The notes beneath the pieces were generated by a model. That model had not been told where the DNA came from and did not search any database. It worked only from the letters and a program-made list of their open reading frames with translations. DNA of 64,000 nt, taken from contig JACOUP010000008.1 of the NCBI GenBank assembly GCA_016177765.1, forward strand, positions 836,864 to 900,863, given 5' to 3'. The DNA is from Deltaproteobacteria bacterium (lineage in GTDB: Bacteria; UBA10199; JACPAL01; JACOUP01). Position numbers and translations under genes: made by a program. This document shows, piece by piece, positions 33,341 through 54,492 of the stretch. Within the stretch, counting starts at the first letter, position 1; each line of letters opens with the position of its first letter.

Positions 33341-33775
33341 GTGCGAACCCGAACTGAACTCCGGCGTTATAAAACGTTTACCATTGAGTTCCATGGGGGC
33401 GTCTTTACCGGATTCCGGAACTACACCCACTACCTCGTCCGGCCTGACGAACCGATTCCCCTTCAATTGCTCCGCAAGACTCACGTCAACATAGGTCCAC
33501 CACGGCCAAAATGCCACCCTATTTCAGGCCAGCCTCTTATGTACGGCCAAACCCCCTTCGGGTTCAAGAACATCAATGGCACCCTTATAGAAGACCCCTT
33601 GGAGCAATTCATCCTCAAACAGATGCGGGAAATGCGCCAGAAGGGGTCTAGCCTCAACGAGATTGCCCGCTATTTAACGAATTCTGGGATCCCGACCAAG
33701 AATGGTGGACGGTGGCAGAGCAATACAGTGAATCAAATCTTGTCGCGTCTTAATTCTGGTTCACGATCTTTTTAA
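33341..33775 (+). pseudogene. remnant of a large serine recombinase (recombinase domain only; catalytic resolvase domain missing)
   Basis: PFGFKNINGTLIEDPLEQFILKQMREMRQKGSSLNEIARYLTNSGIPTKNGGRWQSNTVNQILS matches the serine-recombinase recombinase domain. Only 144 aa; no resolvase catalytic domain upstream. Confidence 0.6.
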
Positions 33776-33795: not shown

Positions 33796-34452
33796 TCACT
33801 TTCTGAATCTCTTATAAATCACCGGAACAAGCGACAACAGCACGAACAAAATCGTTGAAAGGATCAGATGGAAGGTCGCCTTCTCTTTGGCTCCCGTTGC
33901 CCCGCTTAGAAGGGAGGCGGCGAAGTAGGTATAGACAAAGGTGCCGGGGATCATCCCCAAAAAAGAGGCAAGGGCGTAGTCGGTAAATCGGACCTTGGAA
34001 AGACCGGCACCGAAGTTGATTCCGTTGAAAGGGAAAAGAGGGACGAGCCTGAGATAAAAGGTCAGGCGAAAACCGTGACTCGCCGCTTGTTCATCGAACT
34101 CCTTCCATTTTCCTTTCAGAAAACGCGAGACAAAATCCCGTCCCAAGTATCGTGCCCCGAAGAAACCGGCACCGGCGGCAAGGTTCGAGGCAATCACGTT
34201 GTAGAAAAATCCGGGGATGACCCCATACAGGGCACCGATGGCTAAAGTCAGGGCCGAACCGGGAAGACCAAACAACCCCCCGATGCCATAGACAAGAATG
34301 AGAACAATCGGAATCCACCAGAGTTCATGGGCTGATTTTGTAAGGGCGATGAGATGGCTTGGAGTCAAGAGTTGCCGCAAGGGTGTAAAAAAGTAGGCGG
34401 CGAACCCGCCAACCAAGATCAACAGAAAAAGAAGTGGCTTAAAATTCTTCAT
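33796..34452 (-). CDS. TVP38/TMEM64 (DedA-like) family membrane protein
   Basis: DedA/SNARE-associated signature (GxxxGFxxxG...FPFNGINFGAG). Confidence 0.75.
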   Translation of the reverse strand: MKNFKPLLFLLILVGGFAAYFFTPLRQLLTPSHLIALTKSAHELWWIPIVLILVYGIGGLFGLPGSALTLAIGALYGVIPGFFYNVIASNLAAGAGFFGARYLGRDFVSRFLKGKWKEFDEQAASHGFRLTFYLRLVPLFPFNGINFGAGLSKVRFTDYALASFLGMIPGTFVYTYFAASLLSGATGAKEKATFHLILSTILFVLLSLVPVIYKRFRK

Positions 34453-35062
34453 CGAGATCCGAGAGTGTTTTTAAAAGTTCGACCTTGAGGCGGCTTCTGT
34501 TGGCCTTTTCAAGAGTCTTATTGAGAACCTTTTCCGTACTCCAAGGAATTCCTTCAAAAAGAAAGGGATGCGCCTTCTTCATCCCGATCAGATAATAACC
34601 CCCGTCCTTGGCCGGGCCGAGGACAAGATCGGCTTTATCCAGATGATCAAAGGCATCGCACAAGAGTGATCGGTCTATCTCGACACAATCGGTGCCAATT
34701 AAGACGGTTCGGTCTGAACCATTCACTAACGATTCCTGAAAGGCCGCTGACATTCGTTGTCCCAAATCTCCATCACCTTGCGGCTTTATCTCCAAAGATG
34801 GAAACCATTGCCTGAAATCGTTTTCCTTTTGAGGAGGATCGAAACATAGAGTCCGTCGATACTCACCATTCAATGGAAGCGTCTTTTTTATGACCGTCTC
34901 GATCATTTCCCGATAGCGAAGGGCCGCCTCGACTGCGCCCACGGTTCGGGCCAATCGGGTCTTCACTTTCCCTGCCTCTGGGTACTTCGCAAAGATGAGG
35001 AGACGGTTGTTCAACAACAGTTTCCTTTCTGAGGCATCTCTCCGACCACTTTCAATCCGCAA
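34439..35062 (-). CDS. TIGR04282/DUF2064 family protein (arsenosugar-cluster associated)
   Basis: LLIFAKYPEAGKVKTRL N-terminal motif of DUF2064. The true start is probably a TTG near 35020. Confidence 0.7.
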   Translation of the reverse strand: MRIESGRRDASERKLLLNNRLLIFAKYPEAGKVKTRLARTVGAVEAALRYREMIETVIKKTLPLNGEYRRTLCFDPPQKENDFRQWFPSLEIKPQGDGDLGQRMSAAFQESLVNGSDRTVLIGTDCVEIDRSLLCDAFDHLDKADLVLGPAKDGGYYLIGMKKAHPFLFEGIPWSTEKVLNKTLEKANRSRLKVELLKTLSDLDEEF

Positions 35063-36057
35063 TCAAAAAGCCCATAGTGGGTAGAGAGATCGCCGGTCAC
35101 GTTGAAGTGTGAGGCATACCGTGTCTGTTGAAGCATCGCGGCGGTATTGCTACAAACCGGAACCGGTCGTCCTTTTTCAAAGAGGTGATGGTCATCCAGA
35201 AAGAAGGCATGAGGTGATTCCGGAATTGTTCCCAAGTAGGTAGCGATCTGTCCGTAATCCTCACATCGGTCTTCGAGTTTCATTTTGAATGCCCGGATCG
35301 TCGTCGACCAGAAGTCGATCATCCCCGCCTTTGCCTCCACCCCCGGATTTTTCAACTCAATCCGGGAACGGGAGGCAACACGATAATCGTGGCATCCAAC
35401 CTCAAGAAGAAGACGGCGAAAGTCTTCGAGGTAAAGGGCACCACCGAGGCACTCACCCAAGAGGACTGGATCTTCCGACAATTCCTTCGGCATCCGGCGA
35501 CCGGTAAAAATATCAGAAAAGTAAAGCTCTCCGCCTGGCTTCAAGACACGAAAGATTTCGGAGAAGACCCGACGCTTATCGGATGAGAGATTGATGACGC
35601 AGTTCGAGACAATCAGATCGACGGAGTTATTTTTGATCCCAAGCGATTCAAGATCCTCGATGTATCCCTTTAAGAAACGGATGTTCGATTGTGAGTAGCC
35701 AAACTGCCTCATCTGGTAGGGGAGATGTCGTCTTGCCACTTCCAGTTGTTCGTCGGTCATATCGACGCCGATGACCTGACCTTCCGGACCGACCAACTTG
35801 GAAAGGATGTAGGAATCGCGTCCGGTGCCGCACCCAAGGTCCAGGACCGTCAGCCCTTTCAAGACCGATGGGATCGGAGAGCCACAGCCATAACATTTTT
35901 CGATAATCTCCGGGTGAATCATCTTCACAATTTTACGGAGATGGGACGGAAAACTATTGGTGCCGCAACAGGCGTTGGTCTTGAGGTCTTTTTTTCCCGT
36001 CAGGACCTTCCCGTAATAATTTTTAACTTCTTCTTTTGGATTCATTATCTGTGACAT
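35011..36057 (-). CDS. arsM: arsenite S-adenosylmethionine methyltransferase
   Basis: SAM-binding VLDLGCGTG, the ArsM-typical SNCVINLS motif, and conserved cysteines (N-terminal CC, C-terminal CC). Confidence 0.8.
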   Translation of the reverse strand: MSQIMNPKEEVKNYYGKVLTGKKDLKTNACCGTNSFPSHLRKIVKMIHPEIIEKCYGCGSPIPSVLKGLTVLDLGCGTGRDSYILSKLVGPEGQVIGVDMTDEQLEVARRHLPYQMRQFGYSQSNIRFLKGYIEDLESLGIKNNSVDLIVSNCVINLSSDKRRVFSEIFRVLKPGGELYFSDIFTGRRMPKELSEDPVLLGECLGGALYLEDFRRLLLEVGCHDYRVASRSRIELKNPGVEAKAGMIDFWSTTIRAFKMKLEDRCEDYGQIATYLGTIPESPHAFFLDDHHLFEKGRPVPVCSNTAAMLQQTRYASHFNVTGDLSTHYGLFDCGLKVVGEMPQKGNCC

Positions 36058-36075
36058 GCGAATTTCCTCCCTTTC

Positions 36076-37032
36076 TTAAATCAGTGAACCGGAACAGGAG
36101 CTTCCAGCACCTGCGGTACAACCGTAACAGTGATTCGCAAACTGAATCGGGTCGGATGCCAGTTCATCAAATGACTCGATCTCCCAAATCGTTCTTCTTT
36201 TTCCTCCAAGTGGAATCTCAAGCATCTGATTAAAATCACAATCGTAGATTTTGCCATCCCAGCTTATGGAAACGAGGTTGCGACACATCACATGACCGGC
36301 CGCCTCTTGGTTGAAATGGGTCACCAGAAGGTCGGTGTATTGATCCAACTCACCTCGACGTTCCAAATAATCGTGAAATCTCTTGATCGGCATGTTGGTG
36401 ATCGTGAGCAGGTGATTAAATTCGATGTCGAAGAGTTCTTTCAGTTCCTTTTTGTAATCGTCCTCCAACTCCGATTGAGGTGGTGGTAGGAAAGGACCGA
36501 CCGGATTGTAAACAAGATCAAGGAGAAGACCGGTTCCCTCTTTTCCATATCCCAACTCATTCAGGAGCCGAAGCGCCCGGATACTTTTATCAAAGACCCC
36601 GTGGCCCCGTTGGGCCTCGACGTTTTCTTTAGAGTAACACGGAAGTGATGCGACGATCTGAACACGATGTTCCTTGAGGAAACCCGGAGTCTCCTCCTGG
36701 CCCTTTTGAAAAAGAACCGTCAGATTACAGCGATCAATCACCTCGCGTCCGAGGTTTCTCGATTCCTCAACCAGAAAACAAAAGTTCGGATTGAGTTCCG
36801 GCGCCCCGCCGGTCAGATCAACCGTCCGAATCGTGGGTGACTTCTTCAAAAGTTCCATGAGCCGTTCGGCGATCTTTCGCTCCATGATCTCGGTCCGCTT
36901 CGGCCCCGCCTCTACATGGCAATGAAGACAGGCGAGATCACACAGCTTGCCGACATTGATCTGCAAAATCTCAAGCGGCTTCCGTCTGATTTCGAGCCGG
37001 TTCTTTTTTAATATCTCCATGAACGGGATCAT
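36076..37032 (-). CDS. arsS: arsenosugar biosynthesis radical SAM protein ArsS-like
   Basis: CxxxCxxC radical-SAM motif (CDLACLHC) and a C-terminal cysteine cluster CYGCTAGAGSSCSG. Confidence 0.75.
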   Translation of the reverse strand: MIPFMEILKKNRLEIRRKPLEILQINVGKLCDLACLHCHVEAGPKRTEIMERKIAERLMELLKKSPTIRTVDLTGGAPELNPNFCFLVEESRNLGREVIDRCNLTVLFQKGQEETPGFLKEHRVQIVASLPCYSKENVEAQRGHGVFDKSIRALRLLNELGYGKEGTGLLLDLVYNPVGPFLPPPQSELEDDYKKELKELFDIEFNHLLTITNMPIKRFHDYLERRGELDQYTDLLVTHFNQEAAGHVMCRNLVSISWDGKIYDCDFNQMLEIPLGGKRRTIWEIESFDELASDPIQFANHCYGCTAGAGSSCSGSLI

Positions 37033-37660
37033 GAAAAACCCTCCGTCTAAAATTGACAATTATTTCCAACGAAACCCCCAGTCGCCAGAAAATCATCGTG
37101 AGCCAATTGACCAGCGTTGTCTTGAGATAACCGTGTCGTTCCCATCTCCTGCTACTTGTCACTGCTTTCTTCGGGTAGAAACAAAGAGGGCCTAAGGTCT
37201 TCATCTTTTGAATGAGCAGGACATCCTCCAAAAGTGGTGCCTCCGGGTAACCCCCCAACTTTTTAAAATGGGCCTTGCGAATGAAAATCGCCTGATCGCC
37301 GTAGGGGAGTTGAAAAATTCTTTCGCGAAGCCGAACACCAAACTCGATCAGACAACTCTTGAAACCATTTTGGTCCAACGCGAATCGAAAGGCCCCGCCT
37401 ACGAGTTCCGGCCTTTGATTCATGACTTGGGCAAGTTCGATAAGATCATCCGGATTCACTTTTGTGTCGGCATGAAGAAAAACGAGCAAGTCTCCTTTTG
37501 CCTTCGCCGCACCCACATTCATCTGATAGGCACGATTGGCGATTCCTGTCTTTTCCGCATCAATAACGATGACCTCCAATTGAGAATCTTTCTCAAGTTC
37601 GGAAAGATTTCGCTTGAGATGAACGCCGTCGTTCAAAGAAGGAATGATGACGCTGATCAT
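36971..37660 (-). CDS. family 2 glycosyltransferase (TIGR04283-like, arsenosugar-cluster associated)
   Basis: GT2 N-terminus (ISVIIPSLN...DAEKT). Positioned upstream of arsS/arsM. Confidence 0.7.
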   Translation of the reverse strand: MISVIIPSLNDGVHLKRNLSELEKDSQLEVIVIDAEKTGIANRAYQMNVGAAKAKGDLLVFLHADTKVNPDDLIELAQVMNQRPELVGGAFRFALDQNGFKSCLIEFGVRLRERIFQLPYGDQAIFIRKAHFKKLGGYPEAPLLEDVLLIQKMKTLGPLCFYPKKAVTSSRRWERHGYLKTTLVNWLTMIFWRLGVSLEIIVNFRRRVFHDPVHGDIKKEPARNQTEAA

Positions 37661-39084
37661 TCGAACCTCCATTGGAAAAATCTTTTCAGCCATTTTTGTG
37701 TTCGAGGAGAAAGTCGGGATCGCTGATAGGTGTCGGCGATCCGTTTGGAGATTTCGGCGAGTGTCGGATAGATGTGAATCATCGAGGCGACTTTTTTCAG
37801 TCCGATCCTTTGGTGCATCGCCAACGCAAGTTCGTGCAGGAGATCCCCGGCATGAGAACCGACGATGGTTACACCCAACAACTGGTCCGATCCCTTCTCG
37901 GTCAACACCTTGATGAATCCCTCATCCTCACGGTCACAGACGGCGCGATCCAAATCCTTGAAGGAATAAGAATAAATGTCATGGTGGAGACCCTTTTCCT
38001 TGGCTTCTTTTTCGTTCAAGCCAACTCGCGCCACCTCCGGATCGGTGAAGGTGCACCAGGGGACAACACGGTAGTCGATCTTCGATTTTCCGGGAAAGAG
38101 TGCATTTCTTAGGATCAGTCGAGCCTGAAAATCGGCGGTGTGGGTGAATTGATAAGGACCGACGACATCGCCACAGGCATAGATATGTTTGGAGGAAGTT
38201 CGGAGAGTGTCGTCCACCTCGATCCCTTTTTTTGAGAATTTTATTCCCGCCTTCTCCAAGTCAAGGTTGTTCACGTTTGGGGCACGACCGACGGCGACTA
38301 GAATTTTGTCGAACGGGATTCGTTTTTCCTTTTGGCCTTCTTGTACGGTCAGCTCAAAAGATTCACCCGATTTAATTTCAACCGCCTTGTGTCCCGTCAA
38401 GACCTCAATCCCTTCACGTTCAAATCTCTCCTTGATGAGAGCAGAAACCTCCACATCCTCCCGGATAAGAAGGGAGTCCAACATTTCAACGACAGTAACC
38501 TTCGATCCCAATCGGGTGAAGACCTGTGTCAGTTCGGCACCAATCGGGCCTCCGCCGAGGACGACAAGCCGCTTTGGAACTTCCGTAAGCCCCCAGATAT
38601 TATCGCTGGTCAGGATCGGCACTTCTTGAATCCCCTTGATCGGTGGCACAAAGGGGGAGGCTCCGGTAGCAATGACAAATCGTTTTGCCGACAGGGTGAC
38701 GGTTCCATCGGTGATCTCGTAGGGGGAGATGAATCGAAAGGAACCAAAGTGAAGAGCAACACCGAGTCCACGGAACCGGTCGGGTGAATCATGCGGCTCC
38801 AATTTTTCCTGCACCGACCGAACCGATTTCATGATTTGGGAAAGATTGATTTCCGGATTGAGATCGGAAAGGCCAAACCGATTCCCCGTCCTCGCATCAT
38901 ATAAAAGCTTCGCCGTTCGGATGATCGCCTTCGATGGGACACAACCGGTATTGAGGCAATCGCCGCCCATCTTCTGTTTCTCGACTAAGGCGACCTTTAC
39001 TCCCAACCCTGCCGCACCGGCCGCCGACACGAGGCCACCCGATCCGGCGCCGATGACAATCAAGTGGTATTTTCTCAGGTTCAT
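37657..39084 (-). CDS. FAD-dependent pyridine nucleotide-disulfide oxidoreductase (dihydrolipoyl dehydrogenase/MerA-like core, no NmerA and no C-terminal Cys pair)
   Basis: GAGSGG FAD motif, redox-active GDCLNTGCVPSK disulfide, and a dimerisation domain. Confidence 0.8.
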   Translation of the reverse strand: MNLRKYHLIVIGAGSGGLVSAAGAAGLGVKVALVEKQKMGGDCLNTGCVPSKAIIRTAKLLYDARTGNRFGLSDLNPEINLSQIMKSVRSVQEKLEPHDSPDRFRGLGVALHFGSFRFISPYEITDGTVTLSAKRFVIATGASPFVPPIKGIQEVPILTSDNIWGLTEVPKRLVVLGGGPIGAELTQVFTRLGSKVTVVEMLDSLLIREDVEVSALIKERFEREGIEVLTGHKAVEIKSGESFELTVQEGQKEKRIPFDKILVAVGRAPNVNNLDLEKAGIKFSKKGIEVDDTLRTSSKHIYACGDVVGPYQFTHTADFQARLILRNALFPGKSKIDYRVVPWCTFTDPEVARVGLNEKEAKEKGLHHDIYSYSFKDLDRAVCDREDEGFIKVLTEKGSDQLLGVTIVGSHAGDLLHELALAMHQRIGLKKVASMIHIYPTLAEISKRIADTYQRSRLSPRTQKWLKRFFQWRFE

Positions 39085-39110: not shown

Positions 39111-39545
39111 TTATGAATTGCAAGAGCTACAACTCGCCGCTGTAGGTGTCGCGTAAACAACCCCCACCACCGCGCCATAAACGAGGTGACCGATCAGACT
39201 TCCCATGGCCGGAGCCACGGCACCGGAGAAGAATCCCATCCCCATCATCGGCATCACGACAATCTGGGCCATGAGCCAAGGGGCAATCCCGTACAAGGCA
39301 CCACGGATGATTGCCGGTCCGGGAAGTCTGTCACTAAAAAAGGTATACCCAAAGGCGAGAACCGTCCCGATCATAAAGTGGGCGACCCAACCGAGTGTCA
39401 CCGATCCCCCCATGACCCCGGCCAACATCCCCGCAATATCCATCTTCGGTAACCCCATCATCGGGGCGCCGAAGGTGGCAACGATGGTGATTGCCACCGT
39501 CCCCAGAATCCCTGCCAGAATCCCCTTCTTAATGTTGATCTTCAT
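39111..39545 (-). CDS. hypothetical membrane protein with C-terminal Cys cluster
   Basis: Start assigned to MKINIKKG with a Shine-Dalgarno upstream. Four TM helices; C-terminal CSSCNS. Confidence 0.45.
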   Translation of the reverse strand: MKINIKKGILAGILGTVAITIVATFGAPMMGLPKMDIAGMLAGVMGGSVTLGWVAHFMIGTVLAFGYTFFSDRLPGPAIIRGALYGIAPWLMAQIVVMPMMGMGFFSGAVAPAMGSLIGHLVYGAVVGVVYATPTAASCSSCNS

Positions 39546-39654: not shown

Positions 39655-40278
39655 GTGGAAAGTCTTCCAAAATCCCAAGATGTTTCCCCCGTTGCCGCAT
39701 CTAACACCAGTGAGAAGGATTTGATTCGGGGCCTCCGCGAGAAGGCCGATTGGGCCTTTCGCGAATTGATCTCTCGCTGGTCGGATAAACTGTACCGGCT
39801 TTCACTCCGGTTCTTGAGACGCCCGGAGGAGGCCCAGGAGATCGTTCAGGAGGTGTGCTTGAAGGTGGTGGAAAAGATTGACACATTTGAAGGTTCCTCT
39901 TCATTATATACTTGGCTCTATCGGGTCACCGTGAACGAGTCGTTGATGAGGCTTCGGCCCGATAAAGGGAAGAAAACCGTTTCGTGGGAGGATGTCTTGC
40001 CAAAATATGAGAATGGCATCCACACGCAGGAGTTTTCGGATTGGGCAAAACTCCCGGACGAGAGGTTTGCCGAAAAAGAGATACAAGAGTTTGTCCAGTC
40101 GGCCATTGAACTCCTGCCCGATGATCTCAAAACCGCCTATCTCTTGAAGGATGTCGAGCAACTGCCGGAGGATGAGGTCTGCAAGGTTTTAGAGCTCACC
40201 AAACCAGCCATGAAAAACAGGGTTCACCGTGCCCGGCTATTCTTGAGAAAAAAGATTGAGGCGAAGTATGTCCGTTAA
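39655..40278 (+). CDS. RNA polymerase sigma-70 factor, ECF subfamily
   Basis: Region 2 (LYTWLYRVTVNESLMRLR) and region 4 motifs. Confidence 0.8.
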   Translation: MESLPKSQDVSPVAASNTSEKDLIRGLREKADWAFRELISRWSDKLYRLSLRFLRRPEEAQEIVQEVCLKVVEKIDTFEGSSSLYTWLYRVTVNESLMRLRPDKGKKTVSWEDVLPKYENGIHTQEFSDWAKLPDERFAEKEIQEFVQSAIELLPDDLKTAYLLKDVEQLPEDEVCKVLELTKPAMKNRVHRARLFLRKKIEAKYVR

Positions 40279-40555
40279 GCACAAAATGATCCGGGCCATG
40301 TTTGGCCTCATGGGACTCCCGACCTGTGAGGAGGTGGAACAGTTCGCCTACGACTTTTTGGAGGAGGCTTTGGATTCATCGACAATGAAGGCGGTGGGGC
40401 GACACCTCAGGGCGTGTAAGAATTGCCAGCGGTTCATCGCGGCCTATCGCAAGACGGCCGCGTTGGGGAAAATGTTTGAGAAACCGCAACTCGATCCGGA
40501 ATTCAAAGAGAGTCTCTTTGAGTTTCTGGTTCAAAAGGCAGGAGGAAGGGTATGA
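40256..40555 (+). CDS. zinc-finger (zf-HC2) anti-sigma factor
   Basis: C..H...C..C pattern (PTCEE...HLRACKNCQRF). Overlaps the sigma factor stop. Confidence 0.6.
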   Translation: MRRSMSVKHKMIRAMFGLMGLPTCEEVEQFAYDFLEEALDSSTMKAVGRHLRACKNCQRFIAAYRKTAALGKMFEKPQLDPEFKESLFEFLVQKAGGRV

Positions 40556-41175
40556 AAGAGATTTTGATTCCGCTCGGTGTCAGTTTTCTCTCCGGGATGA
40601 TCTTGGGACTGGAACGGGAGATGTCGCACAAACCGGCCGGACTCCGCACCCAGGTCCTTGTGAGCCTGGGGACGACCCTCTTTATTATTTCGGGGCAGTT
40701 GTTTGGCGGAGAGGTCATCCGACTTGCCGCCAATGTGTTGACCGGGTTGGGGTTCTTGGGGGCCGGTGTCATCTGGCAACAGAAGGGAAATGTTCGGGGA
40801 CTCACAACGGCGGCACTCATCTGGGTTAATGGAAGCCTTGGCGTTGCCATCGGATTTCAACAATACGTCTTGGCCGGTGCAGGAGTTCTTCTCACTCTCA
40901 TTGCCCTGCGGCTGTTGGGATTTGTCGAAGAAAAAATTAAGAGCAAGTGTCGGGTTTTCCGTTACGAGGTTGTCACAAAAGAGAATGAAAAAGTCTTGGA
41001 GACGATCCATGAAGCCTTGAATCGTTGTCATTTTCAGGAAGATCCACTCACCTTTGAAAAAGGGGCTGATGCAGTCACGGTTCGTTTTGCCTTTTGCAAC
41101 CCGCCGTTACGGCATCAGGAGTTTGTCGAAAAACTTCGCAAGATGACTGATGTCCTCGGGGTCAAAACCGAATGA
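40552..41175 (+). CDS. MgtC/SapB family protein
   Basis: GLEREMSHKPAGLRT signature of the MgtC family. Confidence 0.8.
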   Translation: MKEILIPLGVSFLSGMILGLEREMSHKPAGLRTQVLVSLGTTLFIISGQLFGGEVIRLAANVLTGLGFLGAGVIWQQKGNVRGLTTAALIWVNGSLGVAIGFQQYVLAGAGVLLTLIALRLLGFVEEKIKSKCRVFRYEVVTKENEKVLETIHEALNRCHFQEDPLTFEKGADAVTVRFAFCNPPLRHQEFVEKLRKMTDVLGVKTE

Positions 41176-41798
41176 CCGATGAGAATCACCGTCTACGATT
41201 AAAATACCAATGGACCTCATGGGTCTATGACCTCCTCGATTATCCGTGGGAGCGGCAATACCGAAAGTGGCGGCCGGAGATCTTGAAAGACGTTAACGGC
41301 CGGGTTTTGGAGGCCGGAGTCGGAACAGGACACAACCTGCGTCACTATTCTTCGTCCGTAAACCTCACTGCCATTGACTTAAGTTCGGGGATGCTTGGTC
41401 AGGCGCGAAAACGGGCAAGACAGGTCCGATGCAGAGTGGACCTCCAAGAGGCCGATGCCACAAACTTGAACCGATTCACCGATGGAATTTTTGATTGGTA
41501 CGTCTCGACTTTCATGTTCTGCGTAATGCCCGACCGCTTGCAACCTATTGCCCTGAAAGAGATGGCGCGAATTCTTAAACCGGGGGGGAGGTTCCGCCTG
41601 ATTGAGATCCTTTATTCCAAAGACCGCGCCCTACGACTCCGCCAGAAAATCCTCGCTCCGTTTGTCGAGTTTGTCTATGGGGCACGGTTCGATCGAAAAA
41701 CCTTGGATCATCTTCGCGCGTTTCCATCGCTCAAGGTAACTCGCACGACCTATTTGAAGGCGGATACCTATCTCTTGATTGAAGGGGAAAAAATTTAA
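41172..41798 (+). CDS. class I SAM-dependent methyltransferase
   Basis: [10 protein letters not shown] motif I and post-I acidic residue. Confidence 0.75.
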
Positions 41799-44003: not shown

Positions 44004-44273
44004 TCAGTTGAGCTTGGAGGTCTTGAACCCCGTCTTGTTCGCTTCCTGAATGATCTGGTCAGCGGTCGCGGGTGATCCGTACTTGCAAATCCCCTCTCCC
44101 TTTTCCCGATCAATCGTGATCTCCTTGCAGAGTGATGAGAGTTGCTTCTTGACCTTCGCCTCGCACATCCCGCAGGTCATCCCCTCGATCTTCATCTTGA
44201 GAGTCTGTGGTTCCGCCGCTGACAGCAGTCCCGGCAGAAGTAATGCCATGACGACAGTGATGATTTGTTTCAT
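44004..44273 (-). CDS. merP: periplasmic heavy-metal-binding protein MerP-like
   Basis: Signal peptide then an HMA domain with GMTCGMC. Start at MKQIIT, preceded by GGAGG. Confidence 0.7.
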   Translation of the reverse strand: MKQIITVVMALLLPGLLSAAEPQTLKMKIEGMTCGMCEAKVKKQLSSLCKEITIDREKGEGICKYGSPATADQIIQEANKTGFKTSKLN

Positions 44274-44563
44274 TTTGTTCCTCCTTGGATTTCTTTGACT
44301 GCCTTTGCAATATCTCCCAAACAGCAACTCTTCTTTGGATTGACAGCTTCGCACCGACAGTTACCGGCTTTTATTTGCGCCCTTAAAAAATCCGGTATTG
44401 TTGTCTTTCCGGTTTTTTTGATCTCCTGCTCGATATCCTGCCTAAAAATATGAAAACAGTAACAGATCGGCGATGAATCATACCTCTCTTTCACAGGAGA
44501 TGCCGGGGCTTGGGCTGTCTCCTTGTCGCTGACTTCACACTCTCCGTCAGAACAGTTTCCCAT
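44270..44563 (-). CDS. Cys-rich BFD-like [2Fe-2S]-binding domain protein (tentative)
   Basis: ICYC...CRC...SCC cysteine pattern with spacing reminiscent of BFD-like domains. Sits between merT and merP. Confidence 0.4.
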   Translation of the reverse strand: MGNCSDGECEVSDKETAQAPASPVKERYDSSPICYCFHIFRQDIEQEIKKTGKTTIPDFLRAQIKAGNCRCEAVNPKKSCCLGDIAKAVKEIQGGTK

Positions 44564-44573
44564 AGTTGGCTCC

Positions 44574-44918
44574 TTAAGATGCAATCAAATGCGGTCCGAT
44601 CAAAAAGATCGCCGCCAATGCCGTTGAGATCCACAAGAGAATCTTCGTCCATTTCTGACTCGTCGGGTTGCAGAGCTTGGCATCCTCGCCTGCCTTGCCG
44701 GCAGGCAGGCAAACCGCCTGTTTCCTTCCATAAACCAGGTAAAAGGCGGTCCCCAATAAGAGGATGGTCAGGATCGTAAAATACTTCTGATAGGGGACCA
44801 GGGCCGAGGCAAAACCAACAGTTCCGGTCAGTCCCAACAAAAGAAGCGGCAAGGCACAACAGGAACCGAAAAGGGCGGTCGCACTCGCCCCAACGGCGGT
44901 GATTCGTGAGAGTTGCAT
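44574..44918 (-). CDS. merT: mercuric ion transporter MerT
   Basis: Three TM helices with the GSCCALPLL vicinal Cys pair in TM1 and a second Cys pair (C..C) in the cytoplasmic loop. Confidence 0.7.
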   Translation of the reverse strand: MQLSRITAVGASATALFGSCCALPLLLLGLTGTVGFASALVPYQKYFTILTILLLGTAFYLVYGRKQAVCLPAGKAGEDAKLCNPTSQKWTKILLWISTALAAIFLIGPHLIAS

Positions 44919-45349
44919 CAGTTCTTTCCCCCTCTCTTTCGACGACCTGCCGACTCGATAATCTCACAAATGCAGGTCGTTTTACTCTTGCGAACCCTTT
45001 TCCAATTTCTAAGAAGACCCCCGATTGTTTTCTTCAACCGACCCATCTCCTTCATCTTTTGATGCAGGGTCGAGATTTTCGTCTCAAGGAGTTCCACCAC
45101 ATGTTCGCAGGGCTTTCCTTTAAGCCTCTTTGCCTCGATCACCTTCTTGATTTCATCAAGGGTCAATCCAAGCCCCTGTGCCGTCTTGATGAATCGGATA
45201 ATATCAATTGTTTCCTGCGGATAGAGACGGTAGCGAGAGGAAGACCTCGGAGCCACAGGGACGAGACGCTCCTTTTCATAGTACCGGACCGTCCACGGAT
45301 CGACACCACACTGTTTTGCCAACTCGCCAATAAACAACCCCGAATGCAT
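44918..45349 (-). CDS. merR: MerR family transcriptional regulator
   Basis: N-terminal HTH (IGELAKQCGVDPWTVRYYE), coiled-coil, and C-terminal cysteines. Its stop abuts the merT start. Confidence 0.8.
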   Translation of the reverse strand: MHSGLFIGELAKQCGVDPWTVRYYEKERLVPVAPRSSSRYRLYPQETIDIIRFIKTAQGLGLTLDEIKKVIEAKRLKGKPCEHVVELLETKISTLHQKMKEMGRLKKTIGGLLRNWKRVRKSKTTCICEIIESAGRRKRGGKN

Positions 45350-49976: not shown

Positions 49977-50978
49977 TCAAAAAAGTTTCAGAAGAAGGTA
50001 AGTCAGAGAGGCGACCATTCCTGCCGCCGGGATCGTGAGGAGCCAGGCGAGGAGGATCGAATTAACCACCCCCCACCGGACGGCGGAGAGCCTCCGGGTC
50101 GAACCGACCCCCATAATAGCGCCGGTGATGGTGTGAGTGGTGCTGACCGGGATCCCGGCGAAGGTCGCCATAAAGAGTGTTGTGGCGGCCGCTGTTTCCG
50201 CCGCAAAACCGCCGACCGGCTGTAGTTTGGTAATCTTCATCCCCATGGTTTTCACAATCCGCCACCCCCCGAACATGGTCCCCATCGCAATAGCAAGGTG
50301 GCACAGAAAAATCACCCAGAGTGGGACGTAAAATTCGCTCCCCAGATGCCCGGTGGAAAAAAGGAGGATGGCAATAATCCCCATCGTCTTCTGGGCATCG
50401 TTGCCGCCATGCCCGAGGCTGTAAAGGCTGGCGGAGAGGAGTTGCAGGCGCCGGAAGTATTTATCCACACGGGAGGGGGCGGAGCGGTAGAAAAGCCAGT
50501 TTACCAGTGTCATCACGATGAATCCGAGCAGAAGTCCCATCAACGGTGAGACAAGGATGAAGATGCAGATCTTGATCAGGCCGCTGGCGATCAGCGAACC
50601 AATCCCGGCCTTGGTGATGGCGGCGCCGACAAAACCGCCGACGAGGGCGTGGGAGCTGGAAGTAGGCAGTCCCCACCACCAGGTCAAAAGGTCCCAGACG
50701 ATCGCCCCGATCAATCCCGCAAAGATCACCGAGATGCTCATGACGGTGGGATCGACGATCCCCTTGCCGATCGTGGTGGCGACATGGACCTTGAAGACGA
50801 AAAGGGCGGCAAAATTAAAAAAGGCGGCCCAGGCAACGGCCGATCTCGGGGAAAGGACTCGCGTGGAGACAATCGTCGCCACGGAATTGGCGGCGTCGTG
50901 AAAACCGTTGATGAAGTCAAAGCCCAAGGCAACAACAATGACAAGGATGATAATCAGGAGTGAATGGGACTCAAGCAT
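49977..50978 (-). CDS. inorganic phosphate transporter, PiT family
   Basis: GFHDAANSVAT signature, repeated in the C-terminal half (GNDAQKTMG). Start assigned to MLESHSLL. Confidence 0.85.
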   Translation of the reverse strand: MLESHSLLIIILVIVVALGFDFINGFHDAANSVATIVSTRVLSPRSAVAWAAFFNFAALFVFKVHVATTIGKGIVDPTVMSISVIFAGLIGAIVWDLLTWWWGLPTSSSHALVGGFVGAAITKAGIGSLIASGLIKICIFILVSPLMGLLLGFIVMTLVNWLFYRSAPSRVDKYFRRLQLLSASLYSLGHGGNDAQKTMGIIAILLFSTGHLGSEFYVPLWVIFLCHLAIAMGTMFGGWRIVKTMGMKITKLQPVGGFAAETAAATTLFMATFAGIPVSTTHTITGAIMGVGSTRRLSAVRWGVVNSILLAWLLTIPAAGMVASLTYLLLKLF

Positions 50979-51591
50979 TCTTGAGGACGATTCCTTCAAG
51001 GACGTTCGCGACATCCTCACAACAGTCGGCGGCGCTTTCCAACGTTTCCAGGACCTCCTTTTCCTTGATCACCCTGATCGGGTCTTTTTCCTTCTCAAAG
51101 AGGTTGGAGATCGCAATCCGCATCGCCTCATCCGCTTCGTTTTCCAACCGGTTGATCTCGATGCATTGGGCCAGGATCATCTCCGGTTTCTTCATGTTTC
51201 GGAGGCGCAAGACCGCCTTGGCGACCTCTTCAACCGCTCTGACCAAGATCCGGACCACCTTTTTCATATCCTCCCCCGGTGTCGAGACCTTATAAAGGAC
51301 CATCCGGTTGGCGGCGCCGTAGATCAGGTCGAGGATATCATCCAGCTCACTGATCAACGCATGGATATCTTCCCGGTCAATCGGGGTGATGAAGGTCTTG
51401 TTGAGCATTTCAATCGTGTCGTGGGTAATCTGATCCCCCGCATGCTCCGCATCTTCTAATTTCTTTAATTTTTCAGGCAGGCGGGTGTAATCGGAAACAA
51501 AATCGGCCAGGAGACGCGCCCCGTGGATGCTGTTGTTAGCCGCCTTTTCGAAGAGGTCAAAAAAGGCGGTTGATTTGGGGAAGAGTGACAT
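50971..51591 (-). CDS. DUF47/TIGR00153 family phosphate-transport regulator-like protein
   Basis: PhoU-like helical protein immediately upstream of the PiT gene, a conserved pairing. Confidence 0.75.
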   Translation of the reverse strand: MSLFPKSTAFFDLFEKAANNSIHGARLLADFVSDYTRLPEKLKKLEDAEHAGDQITHDTIEMLNKTFITPIDREDIHALISELDDILDLIYGAANRMVLYKVSTPGEDMKKVVRILVRAVEEVAKAVLRLRNMKKPEMILAQCIEINRLENEADEAMRIAISNLFEKEKDPIRVIKEKEVLETLESAADCCEDVANVLEGIVLKNA

Positions 51592-51704
51592 GGAATTACC
51601 CCTATAATGATCGCACCTGCCCTCGTCAATGATCTTCTTCTGTTGCTTATCATCCTTCTTTTTTCTTTACGATTCATTCATCCTAACGTAAGGAGGAACA
51701 GACG

Positions 51705-52892
51705 ATGAAGACAATGCTGATCCGGTGGAGTTTGATGATCTGGTTGCTCCTCTTGGCCGTTCCCCCGCTCCATGCCGAAGAGACGGAGGGGACAAAAGAG
51801 GTGTCATCGAAGGTTGAGTATAAGGTTGGCGAGGGTTTGCAAGTCACTTCAGCCGATGGATCCCGACAGATCAATTTTCAGGAACGGGTCCAGGGGCGGT
51901 TTACCTACAATGCCTTGGACGCCGTGGCGGATACGGAGACCTTCGCGATCCAACGGGGCAAGATTCGGGTCTTTGGGTTTGTCTTTGAAAAAAGGCTCCA
52001 GTTTGGTCTCCAGATAAACCTGGCCACTCGGAACGCCGCAACCACCACAGCGGTCTGTCTGGATGCCGGCTGTACCAAGACCGCCAATGCGGTCACTGCG
52101 GAGGGTACGACCGGCCTGGCGACCCTCGAGGATTTTTTTATCGATTGGGTACCGACCGAGACCCTTGGCATCAAGTTTGGCCAGTTTGATGTTCCTTTCC
52201 TGATCCAGCAGTTGACCTCTGATGGCAAACAGCAGTTTGTGGATCGATCCCTCGCCACCGATTTTTTCAACTTCGGCAGGGATATCGGGATCTCCCTGCA
52301 TGGAAACCTCTCCGATCATTTCGGTTATGCCATCTTTGTGGTCAATGGTGAAGGGGTGAACAATCTGAACCGAAACAAGGCGGTGCTGACAGGGCTCCGT
52401 CTGGAATTCCCAATTCTTGGCAAATATTCTTATTCGGAATCGGATAGCGATGATTCTGACAAACCGAATCTGGGGGCCGGTCTCGCCTATGCCTTCAACA
52501 AATCGGCCAATGCGACACAAGGAGGGACGATTGCCGCCGGGACCAAGGCCTCCCATGCGACGATCGATTTGGGGTACAAACATAAAGGATGGTCTTTTCA
52601 GGGGGCAGGGATGTTGACCCGGACCCATGAGACGGCCGCCTTTACCAATTGGGGGTACAACGGGCAGGCCGGCTGGTTTGTGATCCCCAAAAAGTTCGAG
52701 GTTGTGGGTAAGGCCGGCGGCACCATTTTTTCAGGCGCCGTCCCTAACCAGTATGAGTATGCCTCGGGGTTTAATTATTTTATCAAAGGACATCCAATCA
52801 AGTTGCAAACCGATTACACTTTTCTTATCAATAACCGCGGGCAAGACCTCAAGGACCACCGCATTCGAACACAAATGCAGGTGACATTCTAA
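51705..52892 (+). CDS. outer-membrane porin, probably phosphate-selective (OprO/OprP-like)
   Basis: Signal peptide, beta-strand alternation, C-terminal ...QMQVTF. Located in the phosphate gene neighbourhood. Confidence 0.6.
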   Translation: MKTMLIRWSLMIWLLLLAVPPLHAEETEGTKEVSSKVEYKVGEGLQVTSADGSRQINFQERVQGRFTYNALDAVADTETFAIQRGKIRVFGFVFEKRLQFGLQINLATRNAATTTAVCLDAGCTKTANAVTAEGTTGLATLEDFFIDWVPTETLGIKFGQFDVPFLIQQLTSDGKQQFVDRSLATDFFNFGRDIGISLHGNLSDHFGYAIFVVNGEGVNNLNRNKAVLTGLRLEFPILGKYSYSESDSDDSDKPNLGAGLAYAFNKSANATQGGTIAAGTKASHATIDLGYKHKGWSFQGAGMLTRTHETAAFTNWGYNGQAGWFVIPKKFEVVGKAGGTIFSGAVPNQYEYASGFNYFIKGHPIKLQTDYTFLINNRGQDLKDHRIRTQMQVTF

Positions 52893-52908
52893 AGGACGGT
52901 TCACCCCA

Positions 52909-54492
52909 ATGAAACGTTGGTTTATCAATTTTTTCCTCCTCTTTTTCCTTCCTTCTTTGGTTTTTGCCTCACCCAAGGGTGATTCACCCAAGAGGGTCAT
53001 GGTTGTCGTCCTCGACCAGATGCGGCCGGATTATATTGAGACCTACAACCTGACGAACCTTAAAAAATTGCGAGACAATTCTCTCTCTTTCAAAAATGCC
53101 AACGTTGGCCATTTTCCCACGAATACCGTTATGAGCCATCCGGTGATCGGGACCGGGCTCTTTCCCAAGCATTACGGCTGGAGCGATGAACTGTATGAGG
53201 ACCGGGAGGGGTGGTTCGGTCCGAAGGGGGAGCGCTCGATTACCGCCGATTTTGGTCTGAAGCAGTTTCGAAAAATTTATCAAAAAAATCTCCCCCGTCC
53301 GACCGCGCTGTCTCTTTTGAAGGAAAAGTTGGGGGGGGAGGTGATTGCGATCGGTCAGAAAGATTACGCCGCGATCACGATGGGGGGATTGGATGCCGAC
53401 CGGGTCATTGTCCCTTCGGGTAAAATCAAGAAGGGAAAATGGAAGGGGTGGCGTCGGCCGGACGGACTGAACGTTCCATCCTATATTGCCAAACCGGTGG
53501 GGGGCCGGTTCTGGCTCGATTGCCGGGATGATTATGGGACGAAGGGGAGTCTCTACCCGTTGGATGGGAACCGCTATGTTCCGGGGGAGGATCCGGAGCA
53601 TTGGGGAGGGGATTTTTGGACGACCGATGTTGCCCTTGCCGTCATTGAAAAAAATCCGGAGTGGCGTGTCCTGTTGGTGACTCTGGGGGGGGTCGACAAG
53701 ATCGGTCATCTCTTTGGAGAGATGGATAACCCGGCGCAACAAAAGGCCACGGCCGATTTCCCCTACAATTTTCGTCGTGTTTTGAAAATTGCGGATGAAC
53801 AGGTGGGGCGTCTGGTGGCTGATCTGAAAAAAAGGGGGCTCTGGGAGAAGACCATTTTCATTGTGACGGCTGACCATGGCGGTCTTTCCTCCGCCAAACA
53901 TTTTTATGGCGAACGACAAAGGCCAGGACACGATGGCCACGACAATTTTTACTACGGTCCTTTTCAACGGAGTCGTGACTACAAGCCGTCTGTTTTAGCC
54001 CGGAAGTGGCTTGATGGCCGCGTCGAGAACGCCCTTCTTTCAACCGCCAACCGGATCTGGTTGAATGAAGAGGCCAAGAGGGATGTCCCGGCACAATGTC
54101 GTCATTTCAGTCAAATGCCGGCGGCTATCGCTGTTTATAGAAAAAACGGGGAAGGGGACTCTTACTTTTATGAACGTTGTTCTCCTTACCGTGGTCCCCA
54201 TCTCCCTCCTTTTTTGGATCCAGTCACCCTTCTGAATACCTCCGCCTCCGGGCAGGCGCCGGATCTTGTCGTTCAACTGGCGGACGATTCCGGTTATGCC
54301 CTCTTGGGGGATCATGGCGGTTTTCAGGAAAAGTCGATGCGGATCCCGTTTTTCCTCCATACACCGGGGATTCAACCGGCCATGAGTCATTGCCCGATCC
54401 GGTTGGTCGATCTCCTCCCCATCGTCATGACCCAAGTCGGGGTGAAGCCCCCTTCCTGGATGGATGGGAATACCGACTGCTTAAAACCATGA
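52909..54492 (+). CDS. alkaline phosphatase superfamily protein (type I phosphodiesterase/nucleotide pyrophosphatase-like)
   Basis: VLDQMRPDY near the N-terminus and a TADHGG metal-ligand motif. Signal peptide followed by the SPKGDSPK repeat insertion. Confidence 0.7.
   Translation: MKRWFINFFLLFFLPSLVFASPKGDSPKRVMVVVLDQMRPDYIETYNLTNLKKLRDNSLSFKNANVGHFPTNTVMSHPVIGTGLFPKHYGWSDELYEDREGWFGPKGERSITADFGLKQFRKIYQKNLPRPTALSLLKEKLGGEVIAIGQKDYAAITMGGLDADRVIVPSGKIKKGKWKGWRRPDGLNVPSYIAKPVGGRFWLDCRDDYGTKGSLYPLDGNRYVPGEDPEHWGGDFWTTDVALAVIEKNPEWRVLLVTLGGVDKIGHLFGEMDNPAQQKATADFPYNFRRVLKIADEQVGRLVADLKKRGLWEKTIFIVTADHGGLSSAKHFYGERQRPGHDGHDNFYYGPFQRSRDYKPSVLARKWLDGRVENALLSTANRIWLNEEAKRDVPAQCRHFSQMPAAIAVYRKNGEGDSYFYERCSPYRGPHLPPFLDPVTLLNTSASGQAPDLVVQLADDSGYALLGDHGGFQEKSMRIPFFLHTPGIQPAMSHCPIRLVDLLPIVMTQVGVKPPSWMDGNTDCLKP
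52968..52994. repeat. Two 15-nt mini-repeat units (reverse orientation; includes the exact reverse complement of GGGTGAATCACCCTT) in-frame in the alkaline-phosphatase-family gene
   Basis: Direct reading. Encodes SPKGDSPK immediately after the signal peptide. Confidence 0.7.

Follow-up and report, generated by a model that had tools for sequence, protein, structure and literature searches.

A conserved six-gene operon around ArsS and ArsM as a candidate route to arsenosugar-type organoarsenicals in an uncultured deltaproteobacterium

We analyzed a stretch of 64,000 nt, referred to here as the window, from the ‘Deltaproteobacteria bacterium’ assembly GCA_016177765.1 (contig JACOUP010000008.1, positions 836,864 to 900,863). 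It contains an operon of six closely packed minus-strand open reading frames (ORFs) at 33796-39084, encoding an oxidoreductase dependent on flavin adenine dinucleotide (FAD), a GT2-like transferase, the radical S-adenosylmethionine (SAM) enzyme ArsS, an As(III) methyltransferase of the ArsM type, a DUF2064 protein and a DedA/TVP38-type membrane protein with a VTT domain (Table 1). We consider it likely that this operon converts arsenite to a ribose-linked organoarsenical of the arsenosugar type. An earlier note on this DNA had proposed such a function for the four central genes. Its interpretation finds partial support and appears right in substance, with changes to the extent and the surroundings of the gene set that are described below.

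Between 39084 and 33796, every intergenic gap is at most 26 nt long. Shine-Dalgarno sequences and start/stop overlaps at the junctions, together with these small gaps, indicate an operon structure. The ATG of the GT2 gene at 37660 overlaps the oxidoreductase stop codon as ATGA and is preceded by GGAGG 5 nt upstream, an arrangement from which we predict translational coupling of the two genes. The arsS gene starts with an ATG that has its own upstream GGAGG and overlaps the 3′ end of the GT2 gene by 62 nt. It is followed, after a gap of 18 nt, by arsM. The start codon of the DUF2064 gene, a TTG, shares the sequence TTGA with the arsM stop codon (4-nt overlap); a longer ORF extends up to 35062, but translation probably does not begin there. 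The DUF2064 and VTT genes, in turn, overlap by 14 nt. The four genes of the earlier note are all present on the minus strand and are bracketed exactly by the interval that it gave (34439-37660). Its description of them as overlapping holds for GT2/ArsS and ArsM/DUF2064 and fails at the ArsS/ArsM junction.

The same six-gene order was found in two relatives, GCA_016180845.1 (ArsS 86% identical) and GCA_016180855.1 (81%), whose loci are designated L082 and L083 here. The proteins share 58-90% identity with their window counterparts, and at least one flank of the block carries different genes. A scan of a genome collection with ArsS returned at least 600 species-level matches, from which we took 80 loci of different species belonging to Myxococcota, Bdellovibrionota, Gammaproteobacteria, Planctomycetota, Acidobacteriota, Nitrospirota, Bacteroidota and others. 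These loci were searched with the window proteins within ~8 kb of ArsS (16-kb neighborhoods). An ArsM-like methyltransferase was encoded near ArsS in 24 of the 80 loci, a GT2 protein in 23, a DUF2064 protein in 22, the oxidoreductase in 18 (homologues 41-52% identical) and a VTT protein in 12, nearly all on the ArsS strand. Six window genes used as controls (DUF6789, MgtC, a second methyltransferase, DUF255, SPFH and a 141-aa membrane protein) each gave 0/80. VTT and oxidoreductase genes are directly adjacent, in this order, in 11 loci, and the pair often abuts ArsS; the VTT-oxidoreductase loci come from unrelated phyla (L007-L011, L014, L015, L029, L030, L033, L071 and L077). In the lineage of the window, the two genes are set apart, one on each side of the four arsenic genes. 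The six-gene order in the relatives and the recurrence of the partners argue that the flanking oxidoreductase and VTT genes are part of the unit; a four-gene extent was, therefore, too narrow. All five partners occurred together in one locus only (L007), so that a fully consolidated operon seems uncommon.

ArsS matched TIGR04167, the NCBIfam model named ‘arsenosugar biosynthesis radical SAM (seleno)protein ArsS’, with 444.6 bits (cutoff 300, E = 1.6e-133) over profile positions 2-303 of 303, and its Pfam domains are Radical_SAM and DUF3641 (PF12345, E = 5e-56). The CX3CX2C motif of radical SAM enzymes (C31/C35/C38) is invariant across 23 homologues, as are C250/C265/C302/C305/C313 in the C-terminal part. 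The C-terminus carries HCYGCTAGAGSSCSG, and the cysteine-rich cluster quoted in the earlier note, CYGCTAGAGSSCSG, was found in the sequence. The enzyme is the all-Cys form, without selenocysteine. A 100% identical NCBI protein from a ‘Deltaproteobacteria bacterium’ metagenome-assembled genome (MAG) is already named ArsS, and homologues from other phyla are ~50-60% identical. A PDB sequence search with ArsS gave weak matches to the radical SAM core only. The biochemistry of ArsS comes from the Synechocystis enzyme; according to two publications, ArsS adenosylates trivalent dimethylarsenic, DMAs(III), to 5′-deoxy-5′-dimethylarsinoyl-adenosine (DDMAA) (PMC13598754; PMC12159101). By analogy, ArsS of the window should catalyze this reaction.

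The neighboring methyltransferase aligned over residues 8-334, C-terminal domain included, with the ArsM structures 5evj (E = 3e-99) and 4fs8/4kw7 (E = 3e-94). Its C30, C58, C153 and C203 correspond in the alignment to C44, C72, C174 and C224, the conserved cysteines of CmArsM. The VINLS motif and terminal cysteine pairs reported earlier were also recovered, as SNCVINLS, NACC close to the N-terminus and a terminal GNCC, and Pfam assigned the protein to Methyltransf_31 (E = 5e-34). Among curated NCBIfam models, neither the generic ArsM model NF008823 (187.9 versus a cutoff of 263) nor NF038099 for cyanobacterial arsenosugar ArsM (‘AsSugarArsM’; 114 versus 400) nor NF040538 for arsinothricin ArsM (167.2 versus 500) was reached. 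The ArsS-adjacent methyltransferases of 10 other loci also lie under all of these cutoffs, which suggests that the models are narrow. On the basis of the alignments, we accept the protein as an ArsM of a CmArsM/CrArsM-like clade that the NCBIfam models do not cover. The ArsM proteins encoded beside ArsS elsewhere belong mostly to another clade, with NF040538 as the closest model at 320-370 bits. ArsS has, therefore, been joined to at least two ArsM clades, suggesting that the coupling arose more than once and favoring functional coupling over shared ancestry. Such repeated pairing supports a putative substrate-product relation between the two enzymes.

Profile searches placed neither the radical SAM protein nor the two transferases in unrelated families: TIGR04167, TIGR04282 and TIGR04283, the models that the earlier note had proposed to use, all scored over their cutoffs with the expected proteins. 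The DUF2064 protein matched TIGR04282 with 203.9 bits (cutoff 134, E = 1.9e-60; profile positions 1-185 of 189) and the Pfam family DUF2064 (PF09837, E = 3e-36). Its sole PDB match was 3cgx (E = 1e-31), a structural-genomics entry described as a ‘putative nucleotide-diphospho-sugar transferase’, and we predict a CofC/MobA-like fold of this transferase type. The GT2 protein (Pfam Glycos_transf_2) passed the TIGR04283 cutoff of 182 narrowly (189.5 bits, E = 5.8e-56) over profile positions 58-217 of 221. The match is not full-length: ~20-25 residues, the DGGSxD...GRA segment, are missing from the N-terminal region that binds the nucleotide. This deletion is shared by L082 (7330-7962) and L083 (7342-8004), where GT2 identity is 58-82%. 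The motifs GRAxQMN, FLHAD, GDQ, ED and TSxR are kept, with no variation at H63 and D65 of FLHAD across 42 sequences. An AlphaFold2 model (42 homologues) had a GT-A fold and a predicted local distance difference test score (pLDDT) of 89.6, with low confidence in the C-terminal 20-aa tail, the region whose coding sequence overlaps arsS. Foldseek returned generic GT2 matches (WrtF, TarS/TarP, BcsA and PcManGT; best E = 5.6e-9, template modeling (TM) score ~0.55), from which donor and acceptor substrates cannot be deduced. A PDB sequence search with the GT2 protein found no match, and the identical NCBI protein is labeled merely ‘glycosyltransferase family 2 protein’. NCBI names both TIGR04282 and TIGR04283 ‘arsenosugar biosynthesis glycosyltransferase’; their former name, ‘rSAM/selenodomain-associated transferase’ (1 and 2), is still used by JGI. 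What supports an arsenosugar role of the two families is their co-occurrence with ArsS (22 and 23 of the 80 loci), which makes this role a predicted one.

The oxidoreductase contains the Pfam domains Pyr_redox_2 and Pyr_redox_dim and a redox-active CxxxxC motif (C43/C48). It remained below the cutoffs of NF004991 (582 versus 620) and of the mercuric reductase model TIGR02053 for MerA (392 versus 454), although the latter was among its top matches. Solved MerA structures were matched with E = 7e-77, and dihydrolipoyl dehydrogenases equally well or better. The protein ends in ...KRFFQWRFE and has neither the C-terminal Cys pair nor the N-terminal metal-binding, heavy-metal-associated (HMA) domain of MerA. 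A C-terminal Cys pair was likewise absent from all 21 ArsS-linked oxidoreductase homologues, and those of the VTT-oxidoreductase loci have a basic, aromatic tail (for example, ...RTRLTP...W). An identity as MerA was, therefore, rejected: the Cys pair is lacking, the score is below cutoff and the enzyme co-travels with ArsS and DedA without mer genes. The last protein of the block matched Pfam VTT_dom (E = 1.7e-25) and is 89-90% identical and syntenic in both relatives. DedA proteins of COG0398 have been proposed to act as phospholipid flippases and, where fused, are most often joined to oxidoreductases of this kind (PMC10127716).

Combining these data, we propose a five-step route. ArsM would bind As(III) on its conserved cysteines and methylate it twice with SAM, yielding DMAs(III). 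ArsS would then reductively cleave another SAM and transfer the 5′-deoxyadenosyl group to DMAs(III), giving DDMAA. The two GT-A-fold proteins might process DDMAA: glycerol or phosphoglycerol, for instance, could replace or extend the aglycone, or an acceptor could be activated. The oxidoreductase may supply reducing power and may hold the ArsM cysteines or the dimethylarsenic in a trivalent, thiol-reduced state. Finally, the DedA-type protein could translocate the end product, either as such or linked to a lipid, through or within the membrane. For the first two steps, the proposal builds on strong homology to enzymes characterized in other organisms. The roles given to GT2, DUF2064, the oxidoreductase and DedA are predicted from conserved gene neighborhood and fold.

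Several observations weigh against an arsenosugar-type function. No partner at all is encoded within 8 kb of ArsS in 28 of the 80 loci, indicating that the five families are not obligatory neighbors. Searches of the window with aquaglyceroporin (MIP) and ArsC-type proteins of a relative detected no classical ars resistance genes. ArsM falls under every curated NCBIfam ArsM cutoff, GT2 is barely above its own and has lost part of the nucleotide-binding subdomain, and the nucleotide-sugar donors of classical GT2 enzymes would not obviously fit an exchange of adenine on DDMAA. We found no experimental paper on TIGR04282 or TIGR04283, for which the ‘arsenosugar’ names are comparative-genomics inferences, and the experimental backing for the ArsM and ArsS steps is by analogy to enzymes of other organisms. 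In favor of an arsenic context, one relative encodes an aquaglyceroporin and an ArsC-type low-molecular-weight phosphatase 4 kb downstream of the operon (L083, 15439-16571), and the MIP/ArsC-type gene context of the relatives is seen in L082 (1-149), a few kb from the operon.

The alternative that survives best concerns the product. The operon might make a membrane arsenolipid of the arsenosugar-phospholipid type rather than a soluble arsenosugar, which we regard as possible and rather doubtful. The transferases might then join a dimethylarsinoyl-riboside to phosphoglycerol or a lipid head group, with the COG0398-type DedA protein flipping the lipid, and the purpose might be membrane remodeling or sequestration instead of efflux detoxification; both of these extensions are similarly tentative. 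Synechocystis makes arsenosugar phospholipids. In the window, the DedA/VTT gene lies within the conserved block and recurs with ArsS, the proposed flippase function and the oxidoreductase fusions of COG0398 would fit (PMC10127716) and phosphate-acquisition genes are located 11-16 kb away. However, the block contains no acyltransferase or phosphatidyl-transferase, DedA function is itself only proposed, the phosphate genes are distant and perhaps coincidental and VTT is absent from 68 of the 80 ArsS loci. A wider version is equally speculative, namely that the widespread pair of a COG0398 DedA/TVP38 protein and a FAD disulfide oxidoreductase is integral to the ArsS pathway in many phyla and that the six genes form a complete arsenite-to-membrane arsenosugar-lipid route in a non-photosynthetic groundwater bacterium. 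If true, it would provide candidates for the post-DDMAA enzymes and would link this DedA subfamily to a substrate for the first time.

A second alternative, which we judge improbable, separates ArsM from its neighbors. Only ArsM would act on arsenic, in detoxification by methylation and volatilization, while ArsS and the transferases would use another substrate, such as a selenium, antimony or sulfur compound or an unrelated glycoconjugate; an equally improbable corollary is that the ‘arsenosugar’ name has been over-extended from a single cyanobacterium. The earlier ‘selenodomain’ family name and the selenoprotein members implied by the NCBIfam name of ArsS are consistent with this idea. In addition, our literature search found no experimental data for non-cyanobacterial members, and ArsS has the moderate identity to homologues of other phyla given above. 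Against it, TIGR04167 is an equivalog-type model that ArsS exceeds by far, and selenocysteine is a catalytic-residue variant that gives no sign of selenium as a substrate. Moreover, an ArsM-type gene of one clade or another beside ArsS in 24 of the 80 loci is hard to explain unless ArsM feeds ArsS.

A part in a mercury or heavy-metal resistance island, with the oxidoreductase reducing Hg(II) in the manner of MerA alongside the nearby MerR, MerT and HMA proteins, is very improbable: the prominent MerA matches and a mer-like gene string syntenic in L082 speak for it, but the score is below cutoff, dihydrolipoyl dehydrogenases match as well or better, the C-terminal Cys pair and N-terminal HMA domain are missing here and in all 21 ArsS-linked homologues, the enzyme travels with ArsS and DedA in phyla without nearby mer genes, the MerT-like protein is under its Pfam gathering score (28.1 versus 32.9) and four opposite-strand genes plus a 680-aa gene separate the two sets.

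Table 1 Features of the proposed arsenosugar-type operon and its surroundings in the window.
Feature	Position	Strand	Details
Recombinase-like ORF	33341-33775	plus	46-residue match to serine Recombinase domain; directly downstream of operon
DedA/TVP38-type VTT-domain membrane protein	33796-34452	minus	218 aa; last of conserved six-gene block
TIGR04282/DUF2064 protein	34439-35014	minus	191 aa
ArsM-type As(III) SAM methyltransferase	35011-36057	minus	348 aa
ArsS, radical SAM/DUF3641	36076-37032	minus	318 aa; NCBI protein P0001
GT2-like transferase, TIGR04283	36971-37660	minus	229 aa; NCBI protein P0121
FAD-dependent pyridine nucleotide-disulfide oxidoreductase	37657-39084	minus	475 aa; first of conserved six-gene block
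DUF6789 membrane protein	39111-39545	minus	Pfam DUF6789, E = 6e-15; C-terminus CSSCNS
ECF sigma factor and zf-HC2 anti-sigma factor	39655-40555	plus	Pfam Sigma70_r2/r4_2, zf-HC2
Entire divergent unit	39655-41798	plus	ECF sigma factor, zf-HC2 anti-sigma factor (HxxxCxxC, HLRACKNC), MgtC, small SAM methyltransferase
mer-like string	44004-45349	minus	MerR-family, MerT-like, 104-aa Cys-rich BFD-like and HMA (MerP/CopZ-like) proteins
Phosphate-acquisition cluster	49977-54492		PHO4/PitA-type transporter, PhoU-like DUF47, phosphate-selective porin O/P, type I phosphodiesterase

Upstream of the oxidoreductase gene, at a distance of 26 nt and in the same direction, lies a DUF6789 gene that is conserved in this position in L082. 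Specifically in this lineage, the operon may begin with this gene and would then start at 39545. A promoter and terminator scan gave counts at chance level, and one promoter-like site 5′ of the DUF6789 gene is not taken as evidence. The adjacent divergent unit encodes a sigma factor of the extracytoplasmic function (ECF) type and its anti-sigma factor. The unit is conserved beside the operon in L082, in the same arrangement, and an ECF sigma gene is divergent from and within 3 kb of ArsS in four of the 80 loci. We regard the two proteins as a candidate regulator pair; an anti-sigma factor of the thiol-reactive (ZAS) type might, in principle, serve as an arsenite sensor.

The surroundings had been read earlier as an island shared with mercury genes, and little of this picture was retained. 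Weak MerR-family, MerT-like and HMA genes do occur 7 kb away, separated from the operon by the ECF sigma, anti-sigma, MgtC and methyltransferase genes on the plus strand and by a 680-aa DUF255 gene. No MerA or MerB accompanies them, and with the MerT-like protein below threshold the string lacks the combination of MerR, MerT, MerP and MerA that defines a mer operon. The oxidoreductase was discarded as a mercury gene, as described above. An island is not supported either: we found no flanking repeats and no intact integrase, the nearest tRNA gene is at 2693 and the genes upstream are housekeeping genes (glutamate synthase, BipA, 3′-phosphoadenosine-5′-phosphosulfate (PAPS) reductase and MsrAB). 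The GC content of the region is slightly lower than that of the window (0.48-0.50 versus ~0.52). The sole trace of a mobile element is the recombinase-like ORF, probably a pseudogene remnant. The window also contains a phosphate-acquisition cluster, which may be relevant since arsenate mimics phosphate or may be coincidental.

In seaweed and much seafood, arsenic occurs mainly as arsenosugars and arsenolipids. To our knowledge, only the ArsM and ArsS steps have been shown experimentally, and we know of no enzymes established for the conversion of the adenosyl intermediate to arsenosugars or arsenolipids. A compact, translationally coupled operon that is conserved in relatives offers a candidate gene set for these later steps. 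The system as such is not new, with three of the families already carrying arsenosugar biosynthesis names in NCBIfam, and no new principle emerges from a family set that curated annotation recognizes. Of modest interest are the recurrent link of DedA and oxidoreductase to ArsS and the possible use of so small a gene set as a test bed for the later steps. ArsS modules are frequent far beyond cyanobacteria, and the DedA-oxidoreductase pair travels with them.

Among known systems, the arsinothricin cluster arsQML of Burkholderia gladioli also combines an ArsM-type methyltransferase with a C-As bond-forming radical SAM enzyme (PMC8552651; 10.1101/2024.02.01.577332). This enzyme, ArsL, differs from ArsS in being non-canonical and in transferring a 3-amino-3-carboxypropyl group, and the window encodes neither ArsL nor ArsQ. 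The window ArsM resembles CmArsM of Cyanidioschyzon (4fs8) and CrArsM of Chlamydomonas (5evj) in full-length homology, the four cysteines and the SAM-binding motif. Whereas these algal proteins have been studied as stand-alone enzymes of methylation and detoxification, that of the window is embedded in an ArsS operon. The pairing of DedA and oxidoreductase recalls the COG0398 fusions (PMC10127716): the same two families are involved and are adjacent in 11 of the 80 ArsS loci, but in the window they are split around the four arsenic genes. No link of this pair to ArsS was found in the literature searched.

The two transferases agree with TIGR04282 and TIGR04283 in exceeding the model cutoffs and in being encoded near ArsS, the association that defines these families. 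Unlike other TIGR04283 members, the window GT2 lacks the N-terminal nucleotide-binding residues noted above. In the only cyanobacterial locus retrieved, from Myxacorys almedinensis (L084, 9330-10693), an adjacent DUF2064-TIGR04283 pair lies among NDH-1 subunit genes and a gene for an S-layer homology (SLH) protein, and no ArsS or ArsM is encoded within 10 kb of it. The statement that the gene set is best documented in cyanobacteria, therefore, applies to ArsM and ArsS and does not extend to the transferases, for which this locus shows the pair apart and no experimental test was found.

The closest comparison is with arsM-arsS of Synechocystis sp. PCC 6803. According to two reports, SsArsM and SsArsS cooperate in the opening steps of arsenosugar synthesis, and the two genes are transcribed together (PMC8552651; 10.1101/2022.09.23.509062). 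The window differs in gene order (arsS then arsM), in the clade of its ArsM and in its host, an uncultured and presumably non-photosynthetic ‘Deltaproteobacteria’ MAG; it also adds two transferases, an oxidoreductase and a DedA protein in the same operon. Common to both systems are an ArsM and a TIGR04167 enzyme encoded side by side in the same direction, for which the same chemistry would be expected.

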